From positions 35,714-99,713 of the IMG/VR virus record IMGVR_UViG_3300021142_000014: a DNA stretch of 64,000 nt; one strand, written 5' to 3'. Shown piece after piece: positions 16,698-63,246 of this stretch. Within the stretch, counting starts at the first letter, position 1. Every line of letters starts with the position of its first letter. A model generated the notes under the pieces. The model was not told the DNA's origin, did not search any database, and saw only the letters and a program-made list of their open reading frames with translations. Both the position numbers and the translations under genes were made by a program. Origin of the DNA: a virus.

Positions 16698-16880
16698 TTA
16701 TTCTCCTATATCCCAATCTTCGATTGAACCTAATCTTACCACATGGGCGCAAGGATCTCCACCTTCATCCCACGATCTTTCTTCGCTTTCATGCATGGGA
16801 AAACCATCATGAGTACTACAGAATTGTTCTGTGCAATAACCCTTATCGACACCAAACTTTAACCATTCATCAAAATCCAT
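16698..16880 (-). CDS. Small Cys/His hypothetical phage protein
   Basis: FDEWL..G..KGYC....C.THDG.P...GGDPC.HVVRL. Confidence 0.75.
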   Translation of the reverse strand: MDFDEWLKFGVDKGYCTEQFCSTHDGFPMHESEERSWDEGGDPCAHVVRLGSIEDWDIGE

Positions 16881-17431
16881 TATTGATCCTCATATACTTT
16901 CTCAATCCATGCTTGATAAGTCAATTCTATTACTCTAATATAATCATGAGCAATATTCAAGACGGCATTGATACCATCCTTAGGATTGTAATATGAGCCT
17001 TTACCAAGATTCCATTCGTAGTCATCAAAAGCCATAATGCCGCCTACTTCAAGGCATTGAAAAGCATTTAATCCATCAATAGCTGTTTGGCTAGCTGTAT
17101 GGTCTCCATCGATAAGGATAAAATCGTACTTTTTAGTATTGTTTTTAAAAAACTCATTGCTAGTCATTTTGTGCTTGATTACTCGTGAATCTTCACCAAA
17201 CCTGCTATCATAATATACTTCTACTTCTGCAAAATTAATAGTCTCATGCGCTAATTCTAATGAACCTTCCCATGTATCTACATCGTCTATAGTTATGATA
17301 TTACGATTGTTAAGCAACCACTCCGTTGCATCACCTGTGTATGTTCCAATTTGCAATACACGATATTCACGATCTTTTGGTAAATTCCTATCAAAAAAAT
17401 GTGGTTGAAACCAAACTGGAAAGCTACTCAT
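16880..17431 (-). CDS. Class I SAM methyltransferase (Methyltransf_24-like, possibly acting on glycans)
   Basis: LQIGTYTG, VDTWEGS, YDFILIDGDH, GGIMAFDDY; start revised to ATG 17431. Confidence 0.88.
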   Translation of the reverse strand: MSSFPVWFQPHFFDRNLPKDREYRVLQIGTYTGDATEWLLNNRNIITIDDVDTWEGSLELAHETINFAEVEVYYDSRFGEDSRVIKHKMTSNEFFKNNTKKYDFILIDGDHTASQTAIDGLNAFQCLEVGGIMAFDDYEWNLGKGSYYNPKDGINAVLNIAHDYIRVIELTYQAWIEKVYEDQ

Positions 17432-18197
17432 TGATTGTTTCCTTAATATATTTATTATATTTATTTTTATTATCTCTAAGGTATTTTGGATAAAAATCAG
17501 AATCAATATCTACTAATCTCAACTCATATCCTCTTCCAAGAGTATCTGTATTGTTTTCAAAATTATAATCTAAACTAGATTTAATTTGATCAGTATTACA
17601 TTCAGTATGAGCAAATGCTTCGATTTTATTCTTAATAAACTTAGTATCACCACAAAAAGTCCAGTGCCATCCACCATTTGGAACGCTGATTGAATTAAAA
17701 CTTAATCTTAATGAAGTAGCATTGAATCCAGGCTCCCGGTACTCACGGACACTACAGGCTTTGGCTTTCCACCACAAACCTTCACCAATGTTTTGATTGT
17801 TTAAATAGTATTGGTGAACAATCATATTGAATGAATATGAGAAGTCAGGATCAAAATTCTCACGTAAGAATTCAATAGCTTTAGGATTGGGTATCTCGTC
17901 TAGGTCATTGATAAGAACAATATCATCATCATTATATTCAGATAAATCAAGAATTATATCACGCTGGTAGTTCTCACGACCCCATTCATCAAGACCCTCA
18001 GGGAACTCAATCTCTATGACTGTGTGCTTTGGGTGCTTGATGGTGTTGGCAAGCATTGGCTTATCAAGACCAGTAAAAGTTTTAGTAGCTTCAATCGTGT
18101 AGAAATGATCAACTACGTCTTCCAAAATACCAAGACGCAATTCAAGAATATGTGTCTCGTTATGGAATGGAGTGATACTAACTACACGTCGTGACAC
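17424..18197 (-). CDS. GT17-like glycosyltransferase (beta-1,4-GlcNAc transferase family)
   Basis: F.NE..ILELRL..L..VVD.F..IEA..TFTG..KP, RE.YQRD, DLDEIP, GGWHWTF, KIEAFAHTE. Confidence 0.88.
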   Translation of the reverse strand: MSRRVVSITPFHNETHILELRLGILEDVVDHFYTIEATKTFTGLDKPMLANTIKHPKHTVIEIEFPEGLDEWGRENYQRDIILDLSEYNDDDIVLINDLDEIPNPKAIEFLRENFDPDFSYSFNMIVHQYYLNNQNIGEGLWWKAKACSVREYREPGFNATSLRLSFNSISVPNGGWHWTFCGDTKFIKNKIEAFAHTECNTDQIKSSLDYNFENNTDTLGRGYELRLVDIDSDFYPKYLRDNKNKYNKYIKETINE

Positions 18198-19468
18198 TAC
18201 TTTTGTTCCTTAAGTTTACGTGCCATCTTTGCTTTATTAGTTGCTTTGTTAAATACATTCAACCATTGCTTACATACATCTGTCCAAGTGTGTGAAATGA
18301 CCCATTCATAAGCTTTTTCAGCACGCTCAGCAGCTTCTTCTGGGTGATCCATAATATACTTAATAGTTTGAGCAGCTTCTTCAACATCCATCAAAGGACG
18401 CATACGCTCATTATCATTGTCTTTAATAATCCAGTGGCTCGGTGTGTGGCCACTAGATACCTTCCAACCACGATCTTCTCCAAGAATTTCTGGCACTGAC
18501 GTGTTGTTAGGAGCAACGACCGGAAGCTTTACAGACATTGCCTCGGTAATGCTCAAACCCCAACCCTCACCATGAGTAGTGGTTAGATAAACGTCACTTG
18601 CATTGTAAATATGATTAAGGAATTCAATTGGGAAACCACTGTGAGCACCGAACTGTCTTGGGTCTGGCACTGTAAAGTCAACATTGGGATCAAGACCAAT
18701 TGATCTTGCCATTTGCATAATGCTTCCACCAAAATCGCTTTCTTGCATGTGCATATAAAGGAATGCATTGTCAACACCCATATCCTTCAATTGCTTCATG
18801 ATCATTAAGCTACGTGAGATGTCTTTACGACCTTGGTTTCTGTTCACATTAGTGATAACAAACTTATCTTTCATTGCTGTAAAGATGTTTTCTTTAGCAG
18901 TTTTCTTATCTTCAGGTGATAATGGGAAAAAGTTTTTTGTATTTGTTCCATGGTAAATAACATCTTGTTTGTCTGCCAAAGCACCAATGAATTTACGGCT
19001 TTCACCCTTTGCATACTCTGTGTAAGCAACTGGGAAATCAAAGCTTGCAACACATTGTTTTACCCATTCTTCACGTGGACCACAATCGAATGGATAGTAA
19101 TAAACAGATGAGAATGTATTTGGCTTTGTTCGTTGGAGTTCCAAGATTTGAGGAACGATATCAATTACAATAAAAGTATCTTGAACAATAAATACAATAT
19201 CGTAATCAACCTGAGCAAGTCTATCTAGGAATACTTGACGACCAAAAACGTCTCCGTATGGTCCTTGTGTTCGCAAGGCACTGATGGCTGGCCATAGAGT
19301 ACCAGGCCAAAGTTCTCTGTCATAAGGCCCACCATCGTAGTTAACTCCAATAACATCAATCTCATACTTTCCAGTATTATTGATCTCAGTCATAATATTT
19401 TTCATTACAGTACCGAAACCAGTGCTACATGCGTAGTCACCCCACGCTAGTACTTTGATTTTGCTCAT
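18197..19468 (-). CDS. GT4 (GT-B) glycosyltransferase
   Basis: TGFG, IYHG, VNRNQGRKD, YNASDVYL...GEGWGLSITEAM..KLPVVAP. Confidence 0.92.
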   Translation of the reverse strand: MSKIKVLAWGDYACSTGFGTVMKNIMTEINNTGKYEIDVIGVNYDGGPYDRELWPGTLWPAISALRTQGPYGDVFGRQVFLDRLAQVDYDIVFIVQDTFIVIDIVPQILELQRTKPNTFSSVYYYPFDCGPREEWVKQCVASFDFPVAYTEYAKGESRKFIGALADKQDVIYHGTNTKNFFPLSPEDKKTAKENIFTAMKDKFVITNVNRNQGRKDISRSLMIMKQLKDMGVDNAFLYMHMQESDFGGSIMQMARSIGLDPNVDFTVPDPRQFGAHSGFPIEFLNHIYNASDVYLTTTHGEGWGLSITEAMSVKLPVVAPNNTSVPEILGEDRGWKVSSGHTPSHWIIKDNDNERMRPLMDVEEAAQTIKYIMDHPEEAAERAEKAYEWVISHTWTDVCKQWLNVFNKATNKAKMARKLKEQK

Positions 19469-20160
19469 AGGAGTCTCCATTCCTTTGGACTTATATTAGG
19501 ATTATTATAGGGGGTACGATAGGCTTCTTTCAAGTCTTTACGAGCACTTCCCCATTTTTTTACATAATACTCACCGCTCTTTAAAGAGTTAAGAGGCGCT
19601 GTTAATTTTTGAGTAGTTTGGTGACGAATGTGCACATAAGGAATACTTGTTTGCAATGTTTTGTATCCAAGCAAACTGATACGATATTTCATATCAGTAT
19701 CTTCCCACCAAGCTGGATCAAAATTTTCATCAAAAGTACCACATTTATCAAAAAAGTCTGGTCGTATTGCAAAACAAGCAAAACTTTGATCTTCTATGCT
19801 TTTTGTGGCATCACCCAGGACTTCATCATCCCATAAGATTTGTGTCGGATCAGTTAATGTATCAAATACATCTACTGGGAAAGCCATTACATAATTATCT
19901 GGCATTGCCAAAGTTTCACGAACTAATTGTTTTATTGTTTTTTCAGAAAAAAGAACGTCATCATTACTTACAATAATTACATCACATTTATCACTAATAG
20001 CTTGACGAATACCAGAATTCCAGGCAGCAGCTAAAGGAACTTGATATCTATACTGTGGTTGAATATATAGTTTTAACTCATGATCAGTTTTAGCACTATA
20101 AATAAAATCGACAGCTTGATCAAAATTATTAAGAATTGGGATTACTAATCCTATTTTCAT
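19465..20160 (-). CDS. GT2 (GT-A) glycosyltransferase
   Basis: IGLVIP, AAAWNSGI, VSNDDV (DxD), FDENF.PAWWEDTD. Confidence 0.9.
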   Translation of the reverse strand: MKIGLVIPILNNFDQAVDFIYSAKTDHELKLYIQPQYRYQVPLAAAWNSGIRQAISDKCDVIIVSNDDVLFSEKTIKQLVRETLAMPDNYVMAFPVDVFDTLTDPTQILWDDEVLGDATKSIEDQSFACFAIRPDFFDKCGTFDENFDPAWWEDTDMKYRISLLGYKTLQTSIPYVHIRHQTTQKLTAPLNSLKSGEYYVKKWGSARKDLKEAYRTPYNNPNISPKEWRLL

Positions 20161-20168
20161 ACTTGTCC

Positions 20169-20432
20169 TTAAAACCAGTTAATATTAACCAATTCTATAC
20201 CAAGCTCTTCACGCATTGCAACTCGTTCTCTTGGACCTGTTTTAGCCCAATAACCATACTCTTCAAACTTCAAAGCATGGTCTAAACAATCTTTAAAAAC
20301 AGGACAACCATCGCAAATACCAAAAATATATTGTTCATTGGTTCTACCATGTTTTGCATAATAAGCATTGACATCAACACCTTTACAAGCTGCTGCTAAT
20401 TGCCAATCGTAATCAATATATTTACGTTCCAT
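20169..20432 (-). CDS. whiB: WhiB-family Fe-S transcription factor
   Basis: WQLAAAC...IC.GCPV..DCL.HAL...YGYWA.T.PRER; start revised to ATG 20432. Confidence 0.9.
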   Translation of the reverse strand: MERKYIDYDWQLAAACKGVDVNAYYAKHGRTNEQYIFGICDGCPVFKDCLDHALKFEEYGYWAKTGPRERVAMREELGIELVNINWF

Positions 20433-20450
20433 AATATTTATGTGGAGTAA

Positions 20451-20560
20451 ATAGCTAAGGGAAGGGCCTCGGGAGGAGTCAAAGTTGAACACCGACTGCA
20501 ACTCCCGAGGAAGACCAGGCCCTTCATGAGGAGCGGAACGCCCTCATAAACTAAAGCTAT
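20451..20560 (-). ncRNA. Putative multi-stem RNA in the whiB leader
   Basis: GC-rich island in AT-rich DNA: closing ATAGCT/AGCTAT, hairpin ATGAGG.GCG-TTC-CGC.CCTCAT, long arm GAAGGG..CCTCGGGAG..AGTC/GACT..CTCCCGAGG.CCCTTC. Confidence 0.5.
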
Positions 20561-20784
20561 TATTTGCTCTTTTTTACATTATCCTTTCGGAATTGTTCTG
20601 CTTTTTTGAGCAAATTTACAATATATTCTACAAAATCTTCAAGTTCTTTAAGATTTTTGTCAGTCTTACTGCCAACGGCCACAGTCTTACCAATTAAAGT
20701 ACTGTGCATTTGACCACTAAGAATCATGTCCATAAGATCTCTATGGATTTGATCATAATCGTTTTTCTTGTTCTTGCCTGTCAT
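20560..20784 (-). CDS. Hypothetical protein
   Basis: Start revised to ATG 20784 (AAGGA RBS). Confidence 0.65.
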   Translation of the reverse strand: MTGKNKKNDYDQIHRDLMDMILSGQMHSTLIGKTVAVGSKTDKNLKELEDFVEYIVNLLKKAEQFRKDNVKKSK

Positions 20785-20792
20785 TTTTTCCT

Positions 20793-21182
20793 TTACCATC
20801 CTTGTCCGCAACCATTTTGATCGGGGACATAACTACTGCCTTCGATCGTTCGAGCAATTGTCACCTGCTCCTCTGGTGTTGCTAATCCTGCATTCTTGGC
20901 AAATTTTAATCCACCAAACTTAATCCAGTTGATATTGGTTATGCCTAAACCACCACTATAGTAGGGGCCTATGTAATTCCAATTACCACCCATTTCACAA
21001 ATGTTAACTTTTTCCCAAACCAACATAATTGGTCTAGAAAATAATATTACTGGATGTACTACTTTTTTAATTTTTTGAACCACTCGGGGTGTTTCTTTGC
21101 TCGTTGTTACTTTTAGAACTGGGGCATGGTGTCCAAAGATTGTCATGGCTCCCAGGATTGAAATCGTAATTAAACGTCTCAA
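20793..21182 (-). CDS. Secreted resuscitation-promoting-factor (Rpf)-like transglycosylase
   Basis: WEKVNICEMGGNW (catalytic Glu), YSGGL, W..FGG, A.LATPEEQ..IA; signal peptide MRRLITISILGAMTIFG from TTG 21182 after AGGAG. Confidence 0.85.
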   Translation of the reverse strand: MRRLITISILGAMTIFGHHAPVLKVTTSKETPRVVQKIKKVVHPVILFSRPIMLVWEKVNICEMGGNWNYIGPYYSGGLGITNINWIKFGGLKFAKNAGLATPEEQVTIARTIEGSSYVPDQNGCGQGW

Positions 21183-21250
21183 GATTTCTCCTAACACTAT
21201 ATGGATAAGTACATTAATTTTTTATAGAGCCTCCTTGTGTAAGTAAATAA

Positions 21251-35210: not shown

Positions 35211-35849
35211 TTATTTCGTTGAAGGTGTAGTTTGTTGTATGATTCCACTGTTAATACCATTAATAATATCCTGGTATTGAAAATTAACATCAGCAGTACT
35301 TAGACCAGTCCATGCAGAACTAAATCCAATTCCACCGCCGTGATTAGTTATATTTTTAATATAGTTTAAAGCAGATAAGTTAGTTGCATTTATAGCAGAT
35401 TGGCTAATAGTTTGATCCACCTGGACAGTAATATTATAAGGATAAGTAACCGTAGTGTAATCCCAACCCATTTGGAAACTTTCCAACCAAACAGCAAAAT
35501 GCAAGTTTTGGCTAGGTACACTGAACATTATATGTTTCTTATGGGAGTTTTGATCATCTTGCATTGTTTTAAATTGTTCAAACATTTTTAACAATGCACC
35601 TCTGCTACCAGCATCACCTTGTATATCTACAGTAGTAATATTTACTGATAATATTTGAGTTACACGGCCAGCAATGGTGCTATAACTTTGCGTATTTAAG
35701 CTATAATTCCAATTGAGTGAATTTAAATTAAATGGGAAATTATATGTTGTATTAGTGTAAGTATCAACAAATGTAGCTACAGCAGGGACAATTGGTTCCT
35801 GATATGGTAGATAACCATCATTGCTTCCGTATGGTGTAAATAATGACAT
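35211..35849 (-). CDS. Tail tube initiator-like protein
   Basis: Directly after tape measure; F..N.NSL.WNY.LNT....T.AGRV.QILS...I.G.AG. Confidence 0.7.
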   Translation of the reverse strand: MSLFTPYGSNDGYLPYQEPIVPAVATFVDTYTNTTYNFPFNLNSLNWNYSLNTQSYSTIAGRVTQILSVNITTVDIQGDAGSRGALLKMFEQFKTMQDDQNSHKKHIMFSVPSQNLHFAVWLESFQMGWDYTTVTYPYNITVQVDQTISQSAINATNLSALNYIKNITNHGGGIGFSSAWTGLSTADVNFQYQDIINGINSGIIQQTTPSTK

Positions 35850-51406: not shown

Positions 51407-51826
51407 CTAAAGGCTGTATTTACTAATGATGCAATCTACTTCTTGTTCAATAGTTAAACCATCTTTAATTATAAAATCGACGTAATTTATTGGGTCTTGC
51501 CAAAGGGTATTAGTGTCCTCAAAACGGCTTTTTTTGATACGGTCCATCCAGATAAGAATGTCTGGTTTGCCAAAAGCCTCTCTTGCCTCTTCCGTAGGGC
51601 AAACAAAATCCACAATTATGTTATGACCTTGGCGTTCTAAAAGTCTTGCCATCTCACCAAGCCTGCGTGCTTGTTCAACCCTGTCATCGTTTGAGAACCC
51701 AAGATCTGAATTAATTGTTGCCCTAACCTCATCAGCATTCAAATGGATTACAGGTATTTTTTCTTTTAAACCATTTGCTAGAGCAGTTTTACCCGATCCA
51801 GGAAGCCCAATAATCTGGATAATCAT
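51407..51826 (-). CDS. cysC: Adenylyl-sulfate (APS) kinase, PAPS-forming
   Basis: GLPGSGKT, LNADEVR..INSDLGFS..DR.EQARR, IVDFVCP. Confidence 0.88.
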   Translation of the reverse strand: MIIQIIGLPGSGKTALANGLKEKIPVIHLNADEVRATINSDLGFSNDDRVEQARRLGEMARLLERQGHNIIVDFVCPTEEAREAFGKPDILIWMDRIKKSRFEDTNTLWQDPINYVDFIIKDGLTIEQEVDCIISKYSL

Positions 51827-52407
51827 TAATGGTAGAATTTTGTTATTGCCCAGCGCACTCCACTGATAACTGGTTCTACTTGGTGTGCATAAGGAAAGTG
51901 TGCAGGGAAAATAATTAATTGCCCTTTCTTTGGTTTAATTTTTAAATCAAATTCAACAAAATTAATTTCTCCACCTTCGTAATCATTGTTAAGATAATGT
52001 GTTAAAGAAAAAGTTCTTTTTTCAAACATAGCACCACGACCCCAGTCAATATGTGCTTTGTAATGATGACCTATTTCATATTTTAGAATTTGGTATGCAT
52101 CAGATCCGATAGTATCTGTATGGTACTTTTCACAATAATCGTCTACATATGCCTTATAAGCATTATCAAAATGTTCTCTTATACTATCTATTATTTTGTT
52201 CCTACCATCATTGGAAATACCCATAAGCTTTACTTTTCTAGCTTCTGGAATATTTATGTTTTCTCCAACATAGGAATGTGGAGCCCAATTTAGAGAACCA
52301 TTTTTAATATGCTCTTCCCATTCAGGAACCATATTGGAAATATTTTCTCCTACATTGCTATAACTTATTATTCCTGGTGCTAGTATTTCTCTTTTTATTT
52401 TATCCAC
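51826..52407 (-). CDS. 2OG-Fe(II) oxygenase, prolyl-4-hydroxylase-like
   Basis: ILKY..G.HYKAHID (HxD), R.FS...YLNNDYEGGE, FP..F.Y.H.V.PV.SG.R. Confidence 0.92.
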   Translation of the reverse strand: MDKIKREILAPGIISYSNVGENISNMVPEWEEHIKNGSLNWAPHSYVGENINIPEARKVKLMGISNDGRNKIIDSIREHFDNAYKAYVDDYCEKYHTDTIGSDAYQILKYEIGHHYKAHIDWGRGAMFEKRTFSLTHYLNNDYEGGEINFVEFDLKIKPKKGQLIIFPAHFPYAHQVEPVISGVRWAITKFYH

Positions 52408-54413: not shown

Positions 54414-54685
54414 TACTCACCCTTGTTTATTTTTTCCAATTCAAGGTTGGACAATGTAATAGCACTTTTTATGTCTGTGGCAATACCGACTACTTTTACT
54501 TTACCTGGGTTAGTACCTCTAGAAACAATATAGAATTTATAATTCTTATCTTTTTCTATAAATAGTCTTGTTGCAGTACGTGATTCCAGAAAACGAAGAT
54601 AACGTGTTTGATTTTCATTGTTTTTAGGGATTACCATCGTTTTCCAACGACGCTTTTCATTGTATATTTTATTTTTCTTAAACAT
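54413..54685 (-). CDS. Hypothetical basic protein
   Basis: 90-aa ORF, TAATG-coupled. Confidence 0.55.
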   Translation of the reverse strand: MFKKNKIYNEKRRWKTMVIPKNNENQTRYLRFLESRTATRLFIEKDKNYKFYIVSRGTNPGKVKVVGIATDIKSAITLSNLELEKINKGE

Positions 54686-55398
54686 TAGCTTTCTACCTTA
54701 TAAACTTTTTTACGCCATATATTTTTTCTATACCAACCAACTTGGTAATCATAGCTTCTTTCGGGATGGTTTTCCATACTTCTTTTCCATATCCCTTTCT
54801 TCTTTTTAGCTACCCAGTCTTCTCTTTTGAATGGAATAACTTGAAGAATCGGAGTACCTTTAGGAATAGCACCTTCAAAACCCTTTATAACGCTAAATGG
54901 TATGTTACCGCCATGCATAAAGAAGTCACCGTCTACGATACCAGTGAATGTCATAAATGGTAGATCAAACCTATTAAATGGGTGTGTCAAAATTGCACTA
55001 TATCCTTCAGGAAGGTGGAAAGCATACTGAGTTTGCCAAATAAAATGCTCTTCATCATGACCAGCTGGCGATGGCATTGGGTCTGTAGTCATTGGAGGTC
55101 TATTGCTAATTGGCATTGGTTGTTGTTTGCAACGGATAGATGGTCCATTCTCTGTTTGCTCTACATAAACTTCTTGTGGCAAAGACATATAAAATCCAGT
55201 TGTCATAGCATCTAAGAATGGTATACACATCTTAAGACCCATAGCAGGCATATTGTTATTTGGATCTTTATTATCTAAAAACTTTGGTGTTTTTTTATAC
55301 CAATCAGGTACGATTTCAACCATAGCTCCTATACCCTTTTTTTCTACGGTTGGGGAGCCTTCATAATAAAGTACGTTTTTATTATTCTTTTTAAACAT
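54685..55398 (-). CDS. Conserved hypothetical protein, paralog A (possible dUTPase-like fold)
   Basis: PDWYK, K.CIPFLDA.T.G, P.GYS...THP.NR.DLPF, I.KGTP..QVIPFKRE.W, Y....W.KK.Y. Confidence 0.75.
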   Translation of the reverse strand: MFKKNNKNVLYYEGSPTVEKKGIGAMVEIVPDWYKKTPKFLDNKDPNNNMPAMGLKMCIPFLDAMTTGFYMSLPQEVYVEQTENGPSIRCKQQPMPISNRPPMTTDPMPSPAGHDEEHFIWQTQYAFHLPEGYSAILTHPFNRFDLPFMTFTGIVDGDFFMHGGNIPFSVIKGFEGAIPKGTPILQVIPFKREDWVAKKKKGIWKRSMENHPERSYDYQVGWYRKNIWRKKVYKVES

Positions 55399-56078
55399 TA
55401 TTTATACACCTTCTTCTTCCAGAAGTTTTTTCTATAATGACCATTCAACAACTCAGATATAGGAGCTTTCACAGTAGTATCAGCTATGTCCCAAAGACCT
55501 TTTGTAGATTTAGCTACCCATTCTTCTCTTTTAAATGGTATCACTTGAGCTATAGGGGTGCCTTTAGGTATTTCACCTTCAAAACCTTTTTTAATAAAAA
55601 AAGACATGTTAGCACCGGGCATTACATAATCGTCTACCACCGCACTGCTTGTTAAGAATGGTAGATCCCAACGATTCAATGGGTGTGTGTAAAGTAATGA
55701 ATAACCATCAGGAGGTCTTACAGTTATGTTAGCAAACCAAATAAAATGTTCATCTTCATATCCCTCTGGGACTGGTGATGGATCAGTTACTGCACTTGGC
55801 CTATTGTTAACGACAGGTTCTTTTGGATTATTATAACGTATAATTACACCGTTTTCTGTTCTTTGAACATATACACTTTCTTCAAGAACTATGGTGTAAC
55901 CGAGCGTAAGGCTTTCAAGGAATGGGATGCAATGTTTAACTCCAGGCCATTCTTGACCATTTTCGTCAGTTACCCATCTTTTTGTTTTTTTGTACCAATC
56001 AGGTACAACGGAAAGCATAGGCCTCATGTGATCTATAAAACCATTACGACTTTCGTATTTTATGATTTGACGCGACAT
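55398..56078 (-). CDS. Conserved hypothetical protein, paralog B
   Basis: Same motif set as 54685..55398. Confidence 0.75.
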   Translation of the reverse strand: MSRQIIKYESRNGFIDHMRPMLSVVPDWYKKTKRWVTDENGQEWPGVKHCIPFLESLTLGYTIVLEESVYVQRTENGVIIRYNNPKEPVVNNRPSAVTDPSPVPEGYEDEHFIWFANITVRPPDGYSLLYTHPLNRWDLPFLTSSAVVDDYVMPGANMSFFIKKGFEGEIPKGTPIAQVIPFKREEWVAKSTKGLWDIADTTVKAPISELLNGHYRKNFWKKKVYK

Positions 56079-56404
56079 TACTCTTCGTCTTCCTCTTCCT
56101 CATTAACCTCTAGTTCTTGTTCAACGGCTTGCCATTTACCTATTGGACAGAATGCATTAGGTAATTTTACTTTTCCAGGCATAAAGCAACCACATTCTTT
56201 ACATAGCATGGATGACTTACGAATGCGTGGACAATCTTTGCAAATTGCAAGGCGTTCACTAGCTAATTCGTCTTCTACTCTACCAATTTTTTTATTGAAT
56301 AGATCCCATGGTCTAGCTGGGCGTTGTTCAGATGTTTCTTCGGAAGTATTCTTTAGATTTTCTAAATATAATTCCCAAGGCGTTTGCTTTGGTTGTCCGT
56401 TCAT
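56078..56404 (-). CDS. Six-Cys small protein (DUF6171-like)
   Basis: RPWD, ERL.IC..CP, C.ECGCFM..K..L..A.CP.GKW. Confidence 0.75.
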   Translation of the reverse strand: MNGQPKQTPWELYLENLKNTSEETSEQRPARPWDLFNKKIGRVEDELASERLAICKDCPRIRKSSMLCKECGCFMPGKVKLPNAFCPIGKWQAVEQELEVNEEEEDEE

Positions 56405-56406
56405 TT

Positions 56407-56640
56407 TTAACGGTATTCACTCGCAAATTCACCGGCTTCTTCATCGTAACCAAGACCAACTTGGATAAAAGCGCCGCGTTCATGATCTGTAATATCAATT
56501 ATTATTGGTTGGCTTGTCATAATTGCTGCATTTCTAGCACTGCAACTTTGAACATGAACTACTTGACCATCAAGGATAAATGCCAAACGGTTAGTAGTAT
56601 TGATAGCTATCATTGGATCTTCTGGGATTGGAATTGCCAT
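56407..56640 (-). CDS. Small fibre chaperone-like protein, paralog 1
   Basis: RLAFILDG.V..V..C..R.AA...SQP...DIT...G..YD. Confidence 0.7.
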   Translation of the reverse strand: MAIPIPEDPMIAINTTNRLAFILDGQVVHVQSCSARNAAIMTSQPIIIDITDHERGAFIQVGLGYDEEAGEFASEYR

Positions 56641-56641
56641 A

Positions 56642-56881
56642 TTAACTCCTATTATTTTCTAGGCTTTCACCATCAAAATCAGTGAAAGTATCGGTAGCTA
56701 CATCATACTGAAATCCTACCGGTATGTCAAGTCCTGTTATGTTTCTTGCTATTGGCTTACTTAGTAATAAAGCTGCAAATCTCTCTGAGCATTCAATTAC
56801 TTCTTGTACAAAACCATCAAGAATAAAAGCAATCCGATACATAGGAGGCGTATTATTTAGGTCTTCTTCTTTGTTTGTCAT
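56642..56881 (-). CDS. Small fibre chaperone-like protein, paralog 2
   Basis: RIAFILDG.V.EV..C.ERFAALLLSKP...IT...G..YD. Confidence 0.7.
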   Translation of the reverse strand: MTNKEEDLNNTPPMYRIAFILDGFVQEVIECSERFAALLLSKPIARNITGLDIPVGFQYDVATDTFTDFDGESLENNRS

Positions 56882-56897: not shown

Positions 56898-58049
56898 TTA
56901 TATCGCTGAGAATGGTCCTACAGTACTACCCTGGGTGGCACTTCCGCCAACCGGTGAATCAATGATACCAACACTAACATTACCAGTTGGAGCAGTCTGA
57001 TTACTAGACAAAGTTCCCAGAGATGTTACCAATGCAGAATCACTAAAGGCAGTTGCTGTAATATTGCTGTTAGTAGTAACGATTTGGATAGAGTTAATCT
57101 GAGCTGTTGTGCTATTTGAAGGTCCTTGTAGAACTCCTGTTGCAATTGTAGTGATTGTACCACCTACAGATTGTAGCAAGCTTAGCTGGTTATAGTACTG
57201 TGTTGTGTAGTTGGCTGTGTATCCAGCGCAAGCACCATATGACGAGCAAGAATACGATGTACATTGCGTAGCGTATCCTCCACAAGCTGTTCCATAACTT
57301 ATGCAGGGTGGGAAATACGGTGGAAAGAATGGTGGTGGGAAATACGGTGGAAAGAATGGTGGTGGGAAGTAAGGTGGGAAGAATGGAGGAAAGAATGGTG
57401 GAAAGAATGGTGGTGGGAAGTAAGGTGGGAAGAATGGAGGAAAGAATGGTGGAGGTGGTGGTGAGTAGCTAAGGTTGTTTGGTCTTGGAATTTCAACAGG
57501 TCGAGTATTTGGTGAATCTTCTTTTGTACGACGCTTTCGCTTAGGCAACGTTGTAGTTGCTCCCTTAGCATTTGGATCACCATAAGCACTGCTGTAACCA
57601 TAACCTGTGCAAACAGTGTAATAGCTTTGACACACTGGTCCATAGCCTGCGCATGTATAACCTGTGCAAGGATATCCACCAGTACAAGTATAGCTTGTTA
57701 TGTTATTTTGTGAGTAAGCATTGTTAACAACTGCCCACCAGTTACCAGTACTTGTCCACCAAAAAGCAATTCCAGTACCGTTTGAAGCACTCTTCAACGT
57801 CATTGTTGCGCTAGCTTTGTAAGGTATTGTAGCTAATGGGTAAGAACTAGCTGCTGTTGATGTAGTTGCTGATCCGCTTGTTGCATACCATACACCAGTT
57901 TGTGCAACCCAAAGTTGTCCACCTGGGACAGCTGTTCCTAATGATCCTGATGTTGTTCTTGCAAAAAGGTCACTAATAGGTGCTAAAGATCCTGATAGGA
58001 GCCCATAAGCACGGGCTGCAAGGTCACTTAGTGCTGAGAATAATGGCAT
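56898..58049 (-). CDS. Virion-type beta-sandwich protein with Cys-ladder stalk and Pro/Phe/Tyr-rich knob
   Basis: MP.....AARAYG N-terminus, D.F.R...SLG...W..G.W; Cys at 122,128,133,140,147 and 249,256,263,268,274; 52-residue P/F/Y tract. Confidence 0.8.
   Translation of the reverse strand: MPLFSALSDLAARAYGLLSGSLAPISDLFARTTSGSLGTAVPGGQLWVAQTGVWYATSGSATTSTAASSYPLATIPYKASATMTLKSASNGTGIAFWWTSTGNWWAVVNNAYSQNNITSYTCTGGYPCTGYTCAGYGPVCQSYYTVCTGYGYSSAYGDPNAKGATTTLPKRKRRTKEDSPNTRPVEIPRPNNLSYSPPPPPFFPPFFPPYFPPPFFPPFFPPFFPPYFPPPFFPPYFPPPFFPPYFPPCISYGTACGGYATQCTSYSCSSYGACAGYTANYTTQYYNQLSLLQSVGGTITTIATGVLQGPSNSTTAQINSIQIVTTNSNITATAFSDSALVTSLGTLSSNQTAPTGNVSVGIIDSPVGGSATQGSTVGPFSAI
57306..57461 (-). repeat. 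Coding tandem repeat for the PPFF/PPYF tract
   Basis: Two exact 27-bp units (ggtgggaaatacggtggaaagaatggt) plus a 42-bp duplication at 51-bp spacing. Confidence 0.9.
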
Positions 58050-58074: not shown

Positions 58075-61000
58075 TTAGAACTTAGTCTGTCCGAGTAGCA
58101 TAACATACGTATTAGCTGCTGTACATATTAATGTAATAGCATAAAAGTCATAGTTTACTGTTGCATCTGCAGCAGTCCATATTGAACCACCCTGGTAATA
58201 CGCTGTTACGGTGTAAGTGTTAGTATATGCTGTTCCATGGGCAGGTAGCGTAGTACCACCGTTAACAGTGTAACCATTGATCGTAAACCCTGATGGGAGA
58301 TAGGCTGTAGAACCATTATTTGTACCAACAGTGACAGTAACGGCTTGACCAACAGTAGTTGGAGCATTGGTTATTTGGATTTGCCATGCTGATGTTGGAG
58401 CAGCAGTGTAGACATAGACTCCACCAGAAACGGTGTTGAGAACAGCAGCAGCGCTTGAAGATACTACACCAGAACTAACTACAACCTGTTCTAGAGGCGC
58501 TACTAGCAATGGGTTAGTAGCATAAGGGATAACCCCACCAGTACCAGTTGTACCGCTTACAACAGGACCTGAGACCCACTGAGAACCACTATAGATAAGC
58601 ATTGCATTGGCAGTAGGTGCACCGCTTGATACTGTGTAACCTTGTAGTTTAGTTACTTTTGCATTACCTATTGTACCAGTAAGATCTCCACCGACTGCAG
58701 AACCACTGGTCATTACAGCAGAACCACTTACGGTAACAGCTCCACTGAATGAAACGTTACCTATTTGTGTACTTGTTCCTGATACTGTAAATCCACTGGC
58801 TACAACAACGTTTCCACCACTAGTAATTGTCATTGCATCATTAGCTGCATTATTAGTTACAAAGTGTATAGCATTGTTGCCATAAGTACCAATAGCTAGA
58901 TCTGTAGAGGCTGAAGCAAGGTAAACAGCACCTGCAATGTTAAATGCACCATTACCAGTAAAGTTACTGGAGTTCATACCAAACTCACCGTAGTTAGTAC
59001 CACTTGTTCCCAAGTTATTACTTACGTTTAGGTTAGTACTTGCAGATGTACCAGAGTTGGTATTTTGAACAATAACTTGGTTATAGTTGTTAACACTATT
59101 GTTAAAACCAGCCATGATGTTAACGTCAGAGTATGAAAGTCCTCCACCGAAGTTGATTGGTGGGTTAGTAGTAGGCGTGGTAGCGTTGATTGTGTAATTA
59201 ACGTTTAGAGCACCAGAAATAGTTTCTGTACCAGTTATGCTAACGTTTCCATTAACATTGAATGGACTATTAACATTCAAAGTACCGGTAACGGTTCCTC
59301 CACTAAGTGGAAGCTTGTTAGCATCACTACCAGAAAGTGTTACTACTTGCCCTGATAAAGTTGCAATGCTGCTTGTGTTAGTAGTTACATTACCTGAAGT
59401 AGTTGCATATTGACCACTAAGGGTTGCGTATTGTCCGCTAAGGTTTGCAACATTGGTATTAGTAGTATTTAGGTTACCACTAGTTGTGTTGTATGATCCT
59501 GAAAGGGTTACAAACTGTCCAGAAAGGGTTGCAAGCGATCCACTAGTAGCAGCAATGTTACTATTTGCTGTAACCATTTGCCCTGATAGCGTTGCAATAC
59601 TGCTTGTGTTAGTAGTTACAATACCACTTGTTGATACGTACTGGCCTGAAAGAGTAGCAAGGCTACCACTAGTAGCAGCAATATTAGCATTTGCTGTAAC
59701 CATTTGACCTGATAGGGTAGAAATGCTACTTGTATTAGTGGTTACAATTCCTGAGGTTGTAGCGTATTGACCACTAAGTGTTGCAAGGTTGCTATTGGTT
59801 GTAGTTATTGAACCACTCAGTGCTAACAAGTCTCCAGAAAGATTAGTAACTTGATTTTCTGCAATTTGTATACCACTAGTTGTAATGTTGCTTATACGAC
59901 CATAGCCATCTGTAGTAATAATTGAAACATTATTGTTTGAACCATAAGTACCTGATGTACCTATAGTTGCAAGATCAATGCTATCTGGGTTAACAACAAT
60001 TCTACTTGAGTTTGCAGTGACAACATCAATTGTATTACCAGTTTTGGTAAGACCACCACCAGCATTAATTTCTCCAGCACCTGAGAATTGTGAAAATTGA
60101 ATAGTATCAGTACCAATAACAATGTCACCATTGGGACCAGTACCTGCAGAGGCCATAATATATCCATTATTAGCATTTACTGTACCGCTCTGTACGAATA
60201 TAAAATCACCAGCAGTTACTTGACCACTAATTGAATCATTGTAATCAGATGCACGAGTTAGTTTCCAAGGAATTGATGAACTACCTGTAACTGTAACTAC
60301 ATAAACACCATTTTGGGTTCCTGTAGTTTGGTCTTTAACTAGAATACGAGCACCACTAACAAATCCACTAGCTGCTATAGAATCTATTGCAAACCCAGCA
60401 TTAGTGGTTGAAGTTAGAGTAGCTCCAATGCCGTAACCACCATCTTGGTCTATTGTTCCACCACTGTATGTAGCTGTAAGGTTGCCTGTGGTTCCAGCAA
60501 ATGCAGGAGCGTGTACGTTGAGCTGTGCAACTGCAGCATCTACATATTGCTTGTTAGCTAACTCGTAAGTACCTGTAGGAAATGTTGGGTAGTAAGTAAG
60601 TCCAGAAAAAGTTGTGGTGCCTGTAAAAGTTTTAATACCACTAATAGTTTGTGTTGTTCCTAGAGTTACTGTGCTACCGCTAAGAGTAGCAAGATTAGAG
60701 TTAGTTGTATTTAAGCTACCACTAATTGAAGCAATATTTGATTCATCGGTAACTTGTTTTCCAGAGATTGTTGCTATGTTAGTTGTATTAGTAGAAATAG
60801 TTCCACTAAGTGCAGTGGAGATTGTTGGGTTAGGGTAAGTACCTTGGAGGTCACCACCGGCTGTTACGCCACTTATACTAGTAAGAACATTTATTCCACT
60901 TACAGTAAGAGTACCTGGAACATTAACATTGTGGTTGGCAGTACCTAAAACAATTTGATCTTGTGTAGAAGAAGTAGCACCAGCACCAGTGTGATCTGTA

Positions 61001-63246
61001 CCAATAGCAACAGATCCAGGTGCAGTTGCATTGGTTTGGTAACCAATTGCTGTAGCATAATTGCTACCAGTATTATTAATATTGGCTAGATAACCAATTG
61101 ATACACCAAATTCATTGTAATAATAACCGGCTTCATAACCAATAGCTACACCATCAAAATTTTGAGTAGAACCAGCATAAGCACCAATAGCTACACCATT
61201 ATTGTTACTAGATTGACCAGCATAGTTACCAATAGCTACACCAGCAGAATTGACGCTGGATATGGGAGTGTTAGCTCCTAGTGCAATATTAGTAGAATTT
61301 ACAGAAAGTGTACCAGTAACAGTTAAGTTACCAGAAATAGTACCACCTGTTCTTGGAAGAGCAGCGTAAGCTACTCCAGAAACTGTAACTAAGCTACCAC
61401 TAATTGAAGCAATATTTGATTCATCGGTAACTTGTTTTCCAGAGATTGTTGCTATGTAACTTGCTTGATTGGTAACGATACCAGAAGTGGTAGCGTATTG
61501 TCCTGAAAGCGTGGCAATGTTTGCTTCATCAGTGACTTGTTTTCCGCTTATTGTAGCTATGTAACTAGTATTATTAGTAACAATCCCTGAAGTTGTAACG
61601 TATTGACCTGATAGTGTAGCAATATTAGAAGCATCTGTAGCTTGCTTGCCAGATACACTAGCAATGTTTCCAGATATGCTAGTCATATCTGTTACTAGGT
61701 TATTTACTTGACTTTCAGCAATCTGGATTGTGTAAAGTTGTGCGTTAGTAACACGACCATTTGAATCGATAGAAAGCAATGGAGTTTGTGTAGCAGATCC
61801 ATAAGTACCACTAACACCACTAATTGTTCTAAGAGTTGGGTTAGGGTATGTCCCAGTTAAATCTCCACCAGCAGTTGTGCCAGAAAAGATTGTTCTTCCT
61901 GAAGTAGTTACAAATTGACCACTTAGAGTAACAAGAGATCCTGAGAGTGAAGCAATATTAGCTTCGTCAGTTACTTGCTTTCCACTAATAGTAGCAACAC
62001 TTCCTGATAATGTAGAGAGGTTTGAAGCGTTAGTTGAGATACCGTTATTAGCAGTGATCATTTGACCACTAAGTGTGGCAATATATCCAGTTTGGTTGGT
62101 TACAATACCTGACGTAGTATTGTATGAGCCAGAAAGTGATGCGAATTGACCACTAAGATTGGCAACATTAGAGTTAGTTGTAACTAAGTTACCTGAAAGA
62201 GTTACGTATTGACCAGAAAGTGTGGCGATGTTATTTGCTTCAGTAGCAAGAGTATTGGCTTGACCACTAACTACTACATTGAGTCCTGATATTTGTGTAT
62301 TTACACTAGCGAACCCTGAGTCTGTAGTAGTCGATAGATTATCTATTCTTGTACTTAAACCACTAACTTGAGTGTTTAAAGAATTAATGTTTGTAGTTTG
62401 ACCACTAACAGTAGAATTTAGAGTAGAAATACTTACAGATTGACCACTAGTTGTTACAAATAATGCATTGATTTGCCCACTCTGTGTATTAATTTGCCCA
62501 CTCTGTGTATTAATTTGCCCACTCTGTGTATTAATTTGCCCACTCTGTGTATTGATGTTTGTACCATTAGTGTTAATTTGGGTCTGTAAACCACTAATAG
62601 TTGTATTTAATCCACTTACTGCACTTGTTAGAATAAATATATTAATACCTGAAACATTGGTTATACGACCAGCATTATCCCATGAAAATGTTGGCAAGAA
62701 GCTTCCGCCACCACCAGAGAACGTGTCGCCAGTGTATATTGCTTTAAGTGTTGGATTAGGATAAGTACCAGCAAGGTCTCCACCAGCAGCTGTGCCTGAT
62801 ACTACTAAGGTTGAATTGCCAATTATGCTTGTTGCAAGGTTAAATTGAGCTTGTTCAATAGCTGTAGCAACAGGAAAAACATTATAATCGCTAGAAGATC
62901 CTACTGAGTGCGAAGTTGCAGTTGTTCCGTCATAGCCACGGCCATTGGTACCACTAACGTTATAAACAAAAATAGTGGTATTAACACCAAGTGAGATGGC
63001 ACCGCTAGCACACAGTATCTTTTCTTCGCTGCCTAGACCGTAATCTACAACAAGCGTAAAAGGTCCACTAGTTCCTAGTGGATTAGTGGTATTATATCCG
63101 CCTGCGCTAACTTCATACCATCCCGTGGTATTAGCTACAGTTATTGTTTGTCCGCTTGCGAATGCATAGTTAAGCGATGCTGAAAGATACGTAGGTGCAG
63201 CACCACCAGGGTATGATCGTATTACACTGGAATCTGGGAGGGCCAT
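58075..63246 (-). CDS. Long tail fibre (trimeric coiled-coil, YadA-like head repeats, GGDL.GTYPNP repeats)
   Basis: 1723 aa; heptads such as IATLSGQ; GVAIG/ATAIG/SVAIG repeats; NKQYVD; RILVKDQT..QNGVY..WKLTRA.D module. Confidence 0.88.
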   Translation of the reverse strand: MALPDSSVIRSYPGGAAPTYLSASLNYAFASGQTITVANTTGWYEVSAGGYNTTNPLGTSGPFTLVVDYGLGSEEKILCASGAISLGVNTTIFVYNVSGTNGRGYDGTTATSHSVGSSSDYNVFPVATAIEQAQFNLATSIIGNSTLVVSGTAAGGDLAGTYPNPTLKAIYTGDTFSGGGGSFLPTFSWDNAGRITNVSGINIFILTSAVSGLNTTISGLQTQINTNGTNINTQSGQINTQSGQINTQSGQINTQSGQINALFVTTSGQSVSISTLNSTVSGQTTNINSLNTQVSGLSTRIDNLSTTTDSGFASVNTQISGLNVVVSGQANTLATEANNIATLSGQYVTLSGNLVTTNSNVANLSGQFASLSGSYNTTSGIVTNQTGYIATLSGQMITANNGISTNASNLSTLSGSVATISGKQVTDEANIASLSGSLVTLSGQFVTTSGRTIFSGTTAGGDLTGTYPNPTLRTISGVSGTYGSATQTPLLSIDSNGRVTNAQLYTIQIAESQVNNLVTDMTSISGNIASVSGKQATDASNIATLSGQYVTTSGIVTNNTSYIATISGKQVTDEANIATLSGQYATTSGIVTNQASYIATISGKQVTDESNIASISGSLVTVSGVAYAALPRTGGTISGNLTVTGTLSVNSTNIALGANTPISSVNSAGVAIGNYAGQSSNNNGVAIGAYAGSTQNFDGVAIGYEAGYYYNEFGVSIGYLANINNTGSNYATAIGYQTNATAPGSVAIGTDHTGAGATSSTQDQIVLGTANHNVNVPGTLTVSGINVLTSISGVTAGGDLQGTYPNPTISTALSGTISTNTTNIATISGKQVTDESNIASISGSLNTTNSNLATLSGSTVTLGTTQTISGIKTFTGTTTFSGLTYYPTFPTGTYELANKQYVDAAVAQLNVHAPAFAGTTGNLTATYSGGTIDQDGGYGIGATLTSTTNAGFAIDSIAASGFVSGARILVKDQTTGTQNGVYVVTVTGSSSIPWKLTRASDYNDSISGQVTAGDFIFVQSGTVNANNGYIMASAGTGPNGDIVIGTDTIQFSQFSGAGEINAGGGLTKTGNTIDVVTANSSRIVVNPDSIDLATIGTSGTYGSNNNVSIITTDGYGRISNITTSGIQIAENQVTNLSGDLLALSGSITTTNSNLATLSGQYATTSGIVTTNTSSISTLSGQMVTANANIAATSGSLATLSGQYVSTSGIVTTNTSSIATLSGQMVTANSNIAATSGSLATLSGQFVTLSGSYNTTSGNLNTTNTNVANLSGQYATLSGQYATTSGNVTTNTSSIATLSGQVVTLSGSDANKLPLSGGTVTGTLNVNSPFNVNGNVSITGTETISGALNVNYTINATTPTTNPPINFGGGLSYSDVNIMAGFNNSVNNYNQVIVQNTNSGTSASTNLNVSNNLGTSGTNYGEFGMNSSNFTGNGAFNIAGAVYLASASTDLAIGTYGNNAIHFVTNNAANDAMTITSGGNVVVASGFTVSGTSTQIGNVSFSGAVTVSGSAVMTSGSAVGGDLTGTIGNAKVTKLQGYTVSSGAPTANAMLIYSGSQWVSGPVVSGTTGTGGVIPYATNPLLVAPLEQVVVSSGVVSSSAAAVLNTVSGGVYVYTAAPTSAWQIQITNAPTTVGQAVTVTVGTNNGSTAYLPSGFTINGYTVNGGTTLPAHGTAYTNTYTVTAYYQGGSIWTAADATVNYDFYAITLICTAANTYVMLLGQTKF
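60712..61457. repeat. Exact 68-bp direct repeats (60712-60779 and 61390-61457) flanking the YadA-like module
   Basis: taagctaccactaattgaagc...agagattgttgctatgt identical in both copies; offset 678 bp, in frame. Confidence 0.9.
62471..62553. repeat. 21-bp coding tandem repeat x4 (INTQSGQ heptads)
   Basis: atttgcccactctgtgtatta repeated four times without spacers. Confidence 0.95.

Follow-up and report, generated by a model that had tools for sequence, protein, structure and literature searches.

What structure could call for ten cysteines placed in two mirrored sets of five within a single viral protein? The question is raised by P0001, a protein of 383 residues whose gene occupies 56898..58049 on the minus strand of the window, the stretch of 64,000 nucleotides analysed here (positions 35,714 to 99,713 of the IMG/VR virus record IMGVR_UViG_3300021142_000014, which is 99.7 kb long and estimated to be 69% complete). 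The list of open reading frames and the translation, read together with a structure prediction, suggest a split concanavalin A (ConA)-like β-sandwich with a cysteine-ladder hairpin as an insert. We favour an intrachain disulfide ladder of five rungs that would join the two arms of the insert, and put the probability of this reading at roughly 0.6. The ladder is supported indirectly but strongly by the sequence patterns of a family of more than 1000 unannotated clusters.

The cysteine mirror and the split sandwich

P0001 contains ten cysteines in total, at positions 122, 128, 133, 140 and 147 and at positions 249, 256, 263, 268 and 274. Their spacings read 6,5,7,7 in the first arm and 7,7,5,6 in the second, on either side of a step of 102 residues, and all five mirrored pairs of positions sum to 396. 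The codons of C274 (57228-57230) and C122 (57684-57686) delimit exactly the span 57228-57686 given in the initial annotation, whose cysteine positions, spacings and sums are likewise reproduced by the translation. When the residues lying between the outermost cysteines were shuffled 2000 times, five mirrored pairs never arose. A repeat search found no inverted repeat or palindrome in the DNA linking the two arms, so the mirror symmetry is purely a property of the protein, and a DNA palindrome as its cause is ruled out.

The cysteine pattern defines an ascending arm (residues 116-147, 57609..57704, minus strand; C122 to C147) and a descending arm (residues 249-281, 57207..57305, minus strand; C249 to C274). 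The arms had been described as rich in Tyr, Gly and Thr, which agrees with eight Tyr, seven Thr and seven Gly next to the five Cys of the first arm; the second contains seven Tyr and five each of Cys, Ser, Gly and Ala. Nine of the ten cysteines are directly followed by x-[G/S]-Y. The resulting C-x-[G/S]-Y unit has one and the same orientation in the two arms, and the mirroring is confined to the lengths of the linkers. The viral contigs L001 and L002 each contain a full-length copy of P0001 with 89% identity. Compared with the L001 copy, the ascending arm carries 2 synonymous and 0 non-synonymous codon differences and the descending arm 5 and 2, which gives a total of 7 synonymous and 2 non-synonymous differences in the arms, against 10 non-synonymous changes plus indels in the loop between them. 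The arms are under purifying selection. In a relative encoded on contig L010, the spacings of the descending arm are 7,8,5,6, one residue off the mirror.

It could be argued that low-complexity repeats, in evolving, produced the mirror as a side effect without structural meaning, and that the insert is a disordered spacer. The composition of the insert is biased, tandem-repeat DNA lies nearby, and the confidence of the structure prediction is low over this region, all of which would suit such an origin. However, the failure of 2000 shuffles to produce the mirror, the missing DNA repeat between the arms and the selection acting on them are difficult to reconcile with it. Signals of cysteine parity, mirroring and register are moreover found throughout the family, and we consider a meaningless mirror extremely improbable.

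The input for AlphaFold2 (AF2) was an alignment of P0001 with 27 relatives. The model is confident over residues ~30-120 and 275-383, which together form one β-sandwich, with predicted local distance difference test (pLDDT) scores above 85 across most of both halves. The N-terminal half (residues ~22-113, 57711..57986, minus strand, pLDDT 78-94) extends up to the motif NWWAVV, and the C-terminal half (residues 282-383, 56901..57206, minus strand, pLDDT 70-95) begins at QLSLLQ. Exhaustive structural comparison (VIA) identifies the sandwich as ConA-like, with alignments that cover residues 20-383. The carbohydrate-binding module CBM66 (4b1m) is matched with a Z score of 16.5 and a root-mean-square deviation of 2.7 Å over 148 of the 165 residues of 4b1m. 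Two matches come from mycobacteriophages, the receptor-binding domain (RBD) of TM4 gp23 (9n6a, Z 14.8) and a baseplate protein of Douge (8zdo_a, Z 14.7), and many further ConA-like structures score Z >10. Foldseek against the PDB gave no match at E≤0.001, and the legume-lectin matches obtained were weak (best lectin E 0.23). Against BFVD, it returned six uncharacterised proteins of uncultured phages, followed by minor tail and tail fibre proteins of actinophages with weak E-values.

AF2 and VIA thus bear out the initial description of a lectin-like sandwich interrupted between NWWAVV and QLSLLQ. The body of P0001 is predicted to be a ConA/CBM66-like β-sandwich split between these motifs, a fold of the kind that phages use for receptor-binding or glycan-binding heads. 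With CBM66, the TM4 gp23 RBD and the Douge baseplate protein, P0001 shares the β-sandwich fold, a probable actinobacterial host and a gene in the tail region. Sequence kinship to them is not detectable in Pfam, PHROG, NCBIfam or the PDB. Unlike P0001, none of the three structures is described with a long, cysteine-laddered hairpin between two sandwich strands.

Within the N-terminal half, residues ~40-43 (57921-57930) are polymorphic, AVPGGQ being exchanged for AT-SGQ through a 3-nt deletion and substitutions. The variant is found in L001 and L002 as well as in contigs of two of four metagenome runs, the remaining sandwich and the arms being identical.

Proposed cysteine pairing in the homologous family

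P0001 matches no sequence family of Pfam, PHROG or NCBIfam, a profile search of the PDB returned nothing real, and the 27 aligned relatives belong to no relevant Pfam, NCBIfam or PHROG family. The ESM Atlas gave unnamed clusters only, and no GenBank phage record was retrieved by megablast (8 kb) or by tblastn with P0001 and P0027. In metagenomic sequences, a word search gave 46 relatives and a profile search 1161 representative clusters at E≤1e-3, 283 of them at E≤1e-30. All relatives share both sandwich halves; the insert between them measures 60-411 residues and resists alignment over the family as a whole. Freshwater metagenomes of at least 17 studies contain the P0001 gene itself in near-unchanged form. 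One relative, P0002 (an ENA metagenome protein of 222 residues), ends in LLYTSPSPRD, ten residues which we take to be a translated sequencing adaptor at the end of the contig; the C-terminus seen here is artefactual and does not mark a natural truncation.

The bounds of the insert were set in 177 members with hidden Markov models of the two sandwich halves, and the statistics on mirror and register were obtained for 173 of them. Cysteine accounts for 11.7% of residues inside the insert and 0.1% outside it, tyrosine for 10.4% and 3.1%. The number of cysteines is even in 162 of the 177 inserts (binomial p 2.5e-32), and 13 of the 15 odd-numbered inserts have one further cysteine just beyond the boundary as drawn. 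The counts are not confined to multiples of four (93 vs 69). Even numbers without this restriction are the signature of complete disulfide pairing, not of Cys4 metal sites.

The parity is one obstacle to a reading in which the cysteines bind Zn or an Fe-S cluster in the cytoplasm and never form disulfides. Metal binding would be natural for a protein synthesised in the reducing cytoplasm, zinc being the usual partner in Cys-rich intracellular proteins, and some distant relatives do contain CxxC or CxC pairs. P0001, in contrast, lacks His altogether as well as any CxxC or CxxH pair, its cysteines are spaced by 5-7 residues only within the arms, and ten of them cannot fill Cys4 sites. With a His content of 0.4% in the inserts of the family, metal coordination seems very improbable.

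Compared with shuffled sequences, an exact mirror is significant at p≤0.001 in 21 of the 173 members. Non-periodic palindromes are found in separate lineages, including P0052 (5,5,7,7|15|7,7,5,5), P0090 (7,9,9,11,9|19|10,11,9,9,7), P0184, P0120 and P0140. Palindromes of this kind also read 5,5,5,5,7,7,5,12|10|12,5,7,7,5,5,5,5, then 12,12,11|18|11,12,12, and ...15,10|18|10,15.... Where mirrored and direct order predict different spacings, the mirrored order performs better in 64 proteins and the direct order in 25 (p 4e-5). Spacings within proteins show a centred correlation of 0.18 in mirrored order and of -0.07 in direct order (shuffles, -0.05±0.03). P0001 and P0052 differ by a compensated change, with outer spacings of 6 at both ends in one and 5 at both ends in the other. 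Mirrored co-variation among homologues, on which the initial annotation had staked its interpretation, is therefore present in many lineages, although not in all of them.

A compact or solenoid-like disulfide module with non-nested connectivity would account for several of these features in another way, the mirror of P0001 then being a pseudo-symmetry of its C-x-[G/S]-Y units. These units are indeed direct repeats, strict periods of 12, 11-13 or 5 residues are common among the relatives, the order in some relatives is direct and not mirrored, and a flat ribbon accommodates odd rung spacings poorly. Periodicity, however, cannot yield non-periodic palindromes such as 6,5,7,7 / 7,7,5,6 or 7,9,9,11,9 / 10,11,9,9,7, and across the family the mirrored order prevails over the direct one. 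The parity within single arms is informative as well. Arms with an odd number of cysteines occur as 5+5 in P0001 and as 7+7 in P0073, which excludes pairing purely within one arm. With five cysteines in each arm and a Cys-free loop of 101 residues between them, at least one bond of P0001 is forced to connect the arms. We consider a module of this kind unlikely.

A fourth independent signal, after composition, parity and mirroring, comes from the register between the cysteines and the sandwich. The distance of the first cysteine from the N-terminal half (d1) and that of the last cysteine from the C-terminal half (d2) co-vary. Three classes of d1-d2 (9, 5 and 3) comprise 116 of the 173 members, while 45 are expected and the maximum in 2000 shuffles is 57. 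In the largest class, the pair mostly slides in steps of two residues (10/1, 12/3, 14/5, 16/7), as expected of a cross-strand pair on a β-ribbon.

This register bears on a further alternative, in which the insert is an intermolecular cross-linker. The arms of neighbouring subunits, either in a homo-oligomer or in adjacent tail proteins, would pair in antiparallel orientation after release, and interchain disulfides would cement the fibre or baseplate. Antiparallel pairing in a homodimer demands a palindromic cysteine pattern just as a hairpin does. Phage receptor-binding proteins are mostly oligomers, the Cys/Tyr/Gly/Ser composition resembles that of proteins cross-linked between chains, and the arms are unfolded in the AF2 monomer. 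Against this arrangement, the strands from which the two arms depart lie side by side in the sandwich and are paired by AF2. The first and last cysteines of a chain are register-locked to the sandwich of that chain, as an intrachain hairpin would require; interchain pairing has no need of such a lock. We regard cross-linking between chains as quite unlikely.

Geometry of the proposed stalk and variability of the tip

In the AF2 model, the paired strands 104-122 and 277-295 are of unusual length and project from the sandwich towards the first cysteine pair. The model of the homologue P0052 agrees with this and has a longer ribbon (105-128 / 184-207). A ladder is well supported as the topology of the P0001 lineage and of many others; a regular β-ribbon along the arms may be proposed only tentatively. 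For P0001, the oxidation of the cysteines, their nested pairing and the β-ribbon conformation of the arms are inferred from the pattern.

Several observations weigh against an intrachain ladder. The pLDDT of AF2 is 35-48 over residues 128-270 of P0001 and over residues 127-183 of P0052. The modelled ribbon reaches only the first cysteine in P0001 (residue 122) and the first two in P0052, and in neither protein is a rung beyond the base modelled. The ends of the modelled strands give a register sum three above that of the cysteines (399 vs 396 in P0001, 312 vs 309 in P0052), so that without a bulge C122 would face Y277 and not C274. Rung spacings of 5 and 7 are odd, which makes an ideal flat ribbon with all disulfides at non-hydrogen-bonded sites impossible. 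About 137 of the 173 family members have no significant exact mirror; P0010, P0015 and P0019 resemble direct repeats, and P0016, which does have six cysteines on each side, shows a period of 5 in one arm and 4 in the other. The protein is synthesised under the reducing conditions of the cytoplasm, and no gene of the window was recognised as a thiol oxidase. Finally, its presumed location in the virion and its contact with a receptor or the host surface are drawn from fold similarity and gene position only.

The geometry suggests that bulges or irregular structure are needed in the arms, and linkers containing Gly and Pro would fit bulges. The disulfide-crosslinked β-ribbon of the initial annotation is thus retained in part. 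The even cysteine counts argue for disulfides over metal, whereas the rungs lie where AF2 is below a pLDDT of 50 and their spacings of 5 and 7 do not match an ideal ribbon.

The intrachain ladder suggests the following picture. P0001 may be one of the accessory proteins of the tail fibre or baseplate in an uncultured freshwater myovirus with an actinobacterial host. The lectin-fold head of the protein would sit on the tail, attached via an N-terminal helix, and two neighbouring strands of the sandwich would be drawn out into a long hairpin. The rungs C122-C274, C128-C268, C133-C263, C140-C256 and C147-C249 would keep the antiparallel arms in register, and would most likely form outside the cell, when the particle reaches oxic water. 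The product would be a stiff stalk with ~26 residues per arm. It would hold a large, Cys-free tip away from the head, in which a basic patch is followed by a (PPFF)n tract whose length drifts by slippage. Either the head or the tip could touch the cell envelope.

The tip comprises the 101 residues between C147 and C249, in keeping with the loop of about 100 residues containing KRKRR and a Pro/Phe/Tyr tract that had been noted at the outset. Its first half (residues 148-196, 57462..57608, minus strand) contains YGYSSAYGDPNA, KRKRR at residues 170-174 (57528-57542) and a Pro-rich spacer. The second half (residues 197-248, 57306..57461, minus strand) is a Pro/Phe/Tyr tract of 52 residues, built of (PPFF/PPYF)n, that ends at C249. 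The start of the tip, YGYSS.YGDPNA, is conserved, and a corresponding basic patch, RRKKR or RRRRK, is present in relatives with 76% and 67% identity. The tip as a whole (148-248) has no Cys, consists of 36% Pro and 18% Phe, and is modelled with a pLDDT of 36-54. The (PPFF)n tract is encoded by a DNA tandem repeat at 57307-57453 with periods of 12, 27 and 51 nt (TRF), all of which are multiples of three; a separate repeat search also detects it, as family D1.

In four relatives with 67-100% identity, the length of the tip is 64, 92, 94 and 101 residues. With the indels and non-synonymous changes relative to L001, this matches the variability that had been predicted for the loop, and among close relatives the tip is the variable part of the protein. 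Across the family, the gap between the central cysteines is 30 residues or less, with the lineage of P0001 as the outlier (102 in P0001, 95 in L001 and L002). Cys-dense relatives probably have more complex tips. Metagenome contigs of all four runs compared break inside the (PPFF)n repeat. One low-depth metagenome contig skips 57460-57547.

A diversity-generating retroelement was considered as the source of variation and rejected. No RVT_1 domain, and thus no reverse transcriptase, is encoded in the record at its present degree of completeness, and the repeat search gave no direct repeat of the insert resembling a template.

Proteins consisting largely of PFFPPTF / PPFFPPFF repeats are encoded in two other phage contigs (L008:5289-6935 and L012:2619-3908). 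In the L008 protein, the Pro/Phe repeats alternate with Cys-rich modules. Neighbours of the two genes are an SLT_3 lysozyme-like gene and a Phage_cement_2-like gene. The Pro/Phe repeat is a recurrent module of freshwater phages that has no Pfam family.

The architecture had been compared to the bovine ultralong heavy-chain complementarity-determining region 3 (CDR-H3), in which a stalk carries a knob. Both proteins have a long, two-stranded projection from a β-sandwich with a variable element at its end. The antibody stalk, however, has no disulfides and its knob is a small disulfide-rich fold, while P0001 carries its cysteines in the stalk. Its tip, made up of a basic patch and then (PPFF)n, is Cys-free and predicted with low confidence and without structure. 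According to the model, the tip is not globular and forms no folded knob. The part of the comparison that stands is the variable tip on a projection; in the placement of cysteines, the analogy is inverted.

Peptides of the theta-defensin (cyclic), tachyplesin, protegrin and gomesin types consist of two antiparallel strands connected by parallel disulfide rungs, with the cysteines mirrored about the turn. P0001 resembles them in the mirroring about a turn and in the equal number of cysteines per arm. The peptides are secreted, have 17-25 residues and contain 2-3 rungs placed two residues apart. In the P0001 family, by contrast, there would be 5 rungs, or ~10 or more in relatives, separated by 5-12 residues within an insert of a 300-500-residue phage protein, and the turn is replaced by 15-100 residues. 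Cystine ladders are known from small defence peptides (PMC10096437, PMC13001179).

As a lead only, the antifreeze protein of Tenebrio molitor, a β-helix of 12-residue coils braced by disulfides, may be compared; it also contains short repeats rich in Thr, Ser, Gly and Cys with a cysteine every 5-7 residues. A compact module of the kind considered above could resemble it. Some relatives of P0001 have an exact cysteine period of 12 residues, like the length of the Tenebrio repeat. In the antifreeze protein, the disulfides are formed within one coil of a continuous run, whereas P0001 has two separated arms with mirrored spacing and an odd number of cysteines in each.

A literature search on phage disulfide ladders, TM4 gp23 and PFFPP repeats found nothing on the P0001 family, nor any description of a long, multi-rung, register-locked ladder inserted in a lectin-fold head. 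The family-wide stalk, with its probable disulfide rungs, is previously undescribed. The novelty would lie in the long, register-locked ladder within a lectin-fold head, the head fold itself and the ladders of small peptides being known already. If the reading is correct, a length-adjustable, disulfide-stapled stalk grafted into a lectin-fold head on phage tails would be a new structural solution, common in freshwater viromes (>1000 sequence clusters) among proteins that are wholly unannotated. It would bear on how proteins made in a reducing cytoplasm gain many ordered disulfides after lysis, and on where host-range variability resides in phages of the abundant, hard-to-culture, low-GC freshwater Actinobacteria. 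It would also bear on whether a natural scaffold exists for presenting peptides on the tip of a rigid rod. The tests of mirrored co-variation and parity can be reused for other Cys-rich inserts.

Tail module, host and neighbouring genes

The genome encodes a tail sheath, a baseplate wedge protein and a DnaE-type polymerase. Immediately upstream of P0001 lies the gene of a fibre-like protein of 1723 residues (58075..63246, minus strand), which has weak matches to YadA_head, ANG-1 and the PHROG annotations 'tail needle' and 'minor tail protein'. The gene order is kept in L001, where an equivalent of 1997 residues precedes the P0001 homologue. The fold of P0001 resembles that of solved heads of phage receptor-binding proteins, and its gene is located in the tail module, as for a receptor-binding or baseplate accessory protein. 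We consider a role of P0001 in adsorption about an even bet. Residues 4-18 (57996..58040, minus strand) are predicted by AF2 to form an N-terminal helix with low pLDDT, and the consensus MPL..SARA.G is conserved in the family. The helix is a possible candidate for the attachment element.

The host can be approached through a group of genes at 16880-21197 (minus strand). Pfam identifies whiB (20169-20501) and an Rpf-like transglycosylase (20793-21197) in this region. The gene whiB is a marker for the assignment of freshwater phages to Actinobacteria (PMC6802176). Taken with the Rpf-like gene, it indicates an actinobacterial host. The same region contains GT4 and GT17 glycosyltransferases and a Methyltransf_24 gene, as well as a GT2-like match just below the Pfam cut-off. 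The genes of this region point to a capacity for glycan modification.

Five successive genes downstream of P0001 (51407-54413, minus strand) encode a short adenosine 5'-phosphosulfate (APS) kinase of 139 residues, a 2-oxoglutarate (2OG)-Fe(II) oxygenase (PF13640), a PrmC/HemK-like methyltransferase, an Asp/Asn β-hydroxylase and a Sulfotransfer_2-like protein. The first four assignments are supported by Pfam, and the sulfotransferase match is just under the cut-off. Judging from their annotation and position, these enzymes could modify the adjoining structural proteins, which are rich in Pro, Tyr and Asn.

The ladder reading can be extended, tentatively, to a broader view which we hold to be possible and at present rather doubtful. 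A register-locked, multi-rung disulfide ladder would serve a large, undescribed family of phage tail proteins as a rigid stalk that is able to evolve, with rungs varying from 2 to >15 and spacings changing while the arms stay matched. Such a stalk would be a display scaffold without a known counterpart. In P0001, it would present a contingency-type (PPFF)n tract that the neighbouring 2OG oxygenase, Asp/Asn hydroxylase, sulfotransferase with APS kinase, and glycosyltransferases might modify.

A Cys-rich homologue of 557 residues is encoded at 7857-9530 of L007, a contig of a distantly related myovirus. The region directly upstream of it (L007:39-7857) contains a PHROG-7084-like gene, 31% identical to window 54685-55398, and six 2OG-Fe(II) oxygenases that are paralogues of each other and related to window 51826-52407, together with a DUF6065 gene and a glutathione-peroxidase-like protein. 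The association of oxygenases and PHROG 7084 with the P0001 family thus recurs in a second locus.

The remaining genes between the enzymes and P0001 include two pairs of tandem paralogues on the minus strand. The first pair (54685-56078; 237 and 226 residues, 49% identical) belongs to PHROG 7084, and the second (56407-56881) encodes proteins of 77 and 79 residues with 51% identity over 49 residues. Between the pairs, 56078-56404 (minus strand) encodes a DUF6171-like protein of 108 residues that has six cysteines and an acidic tail.

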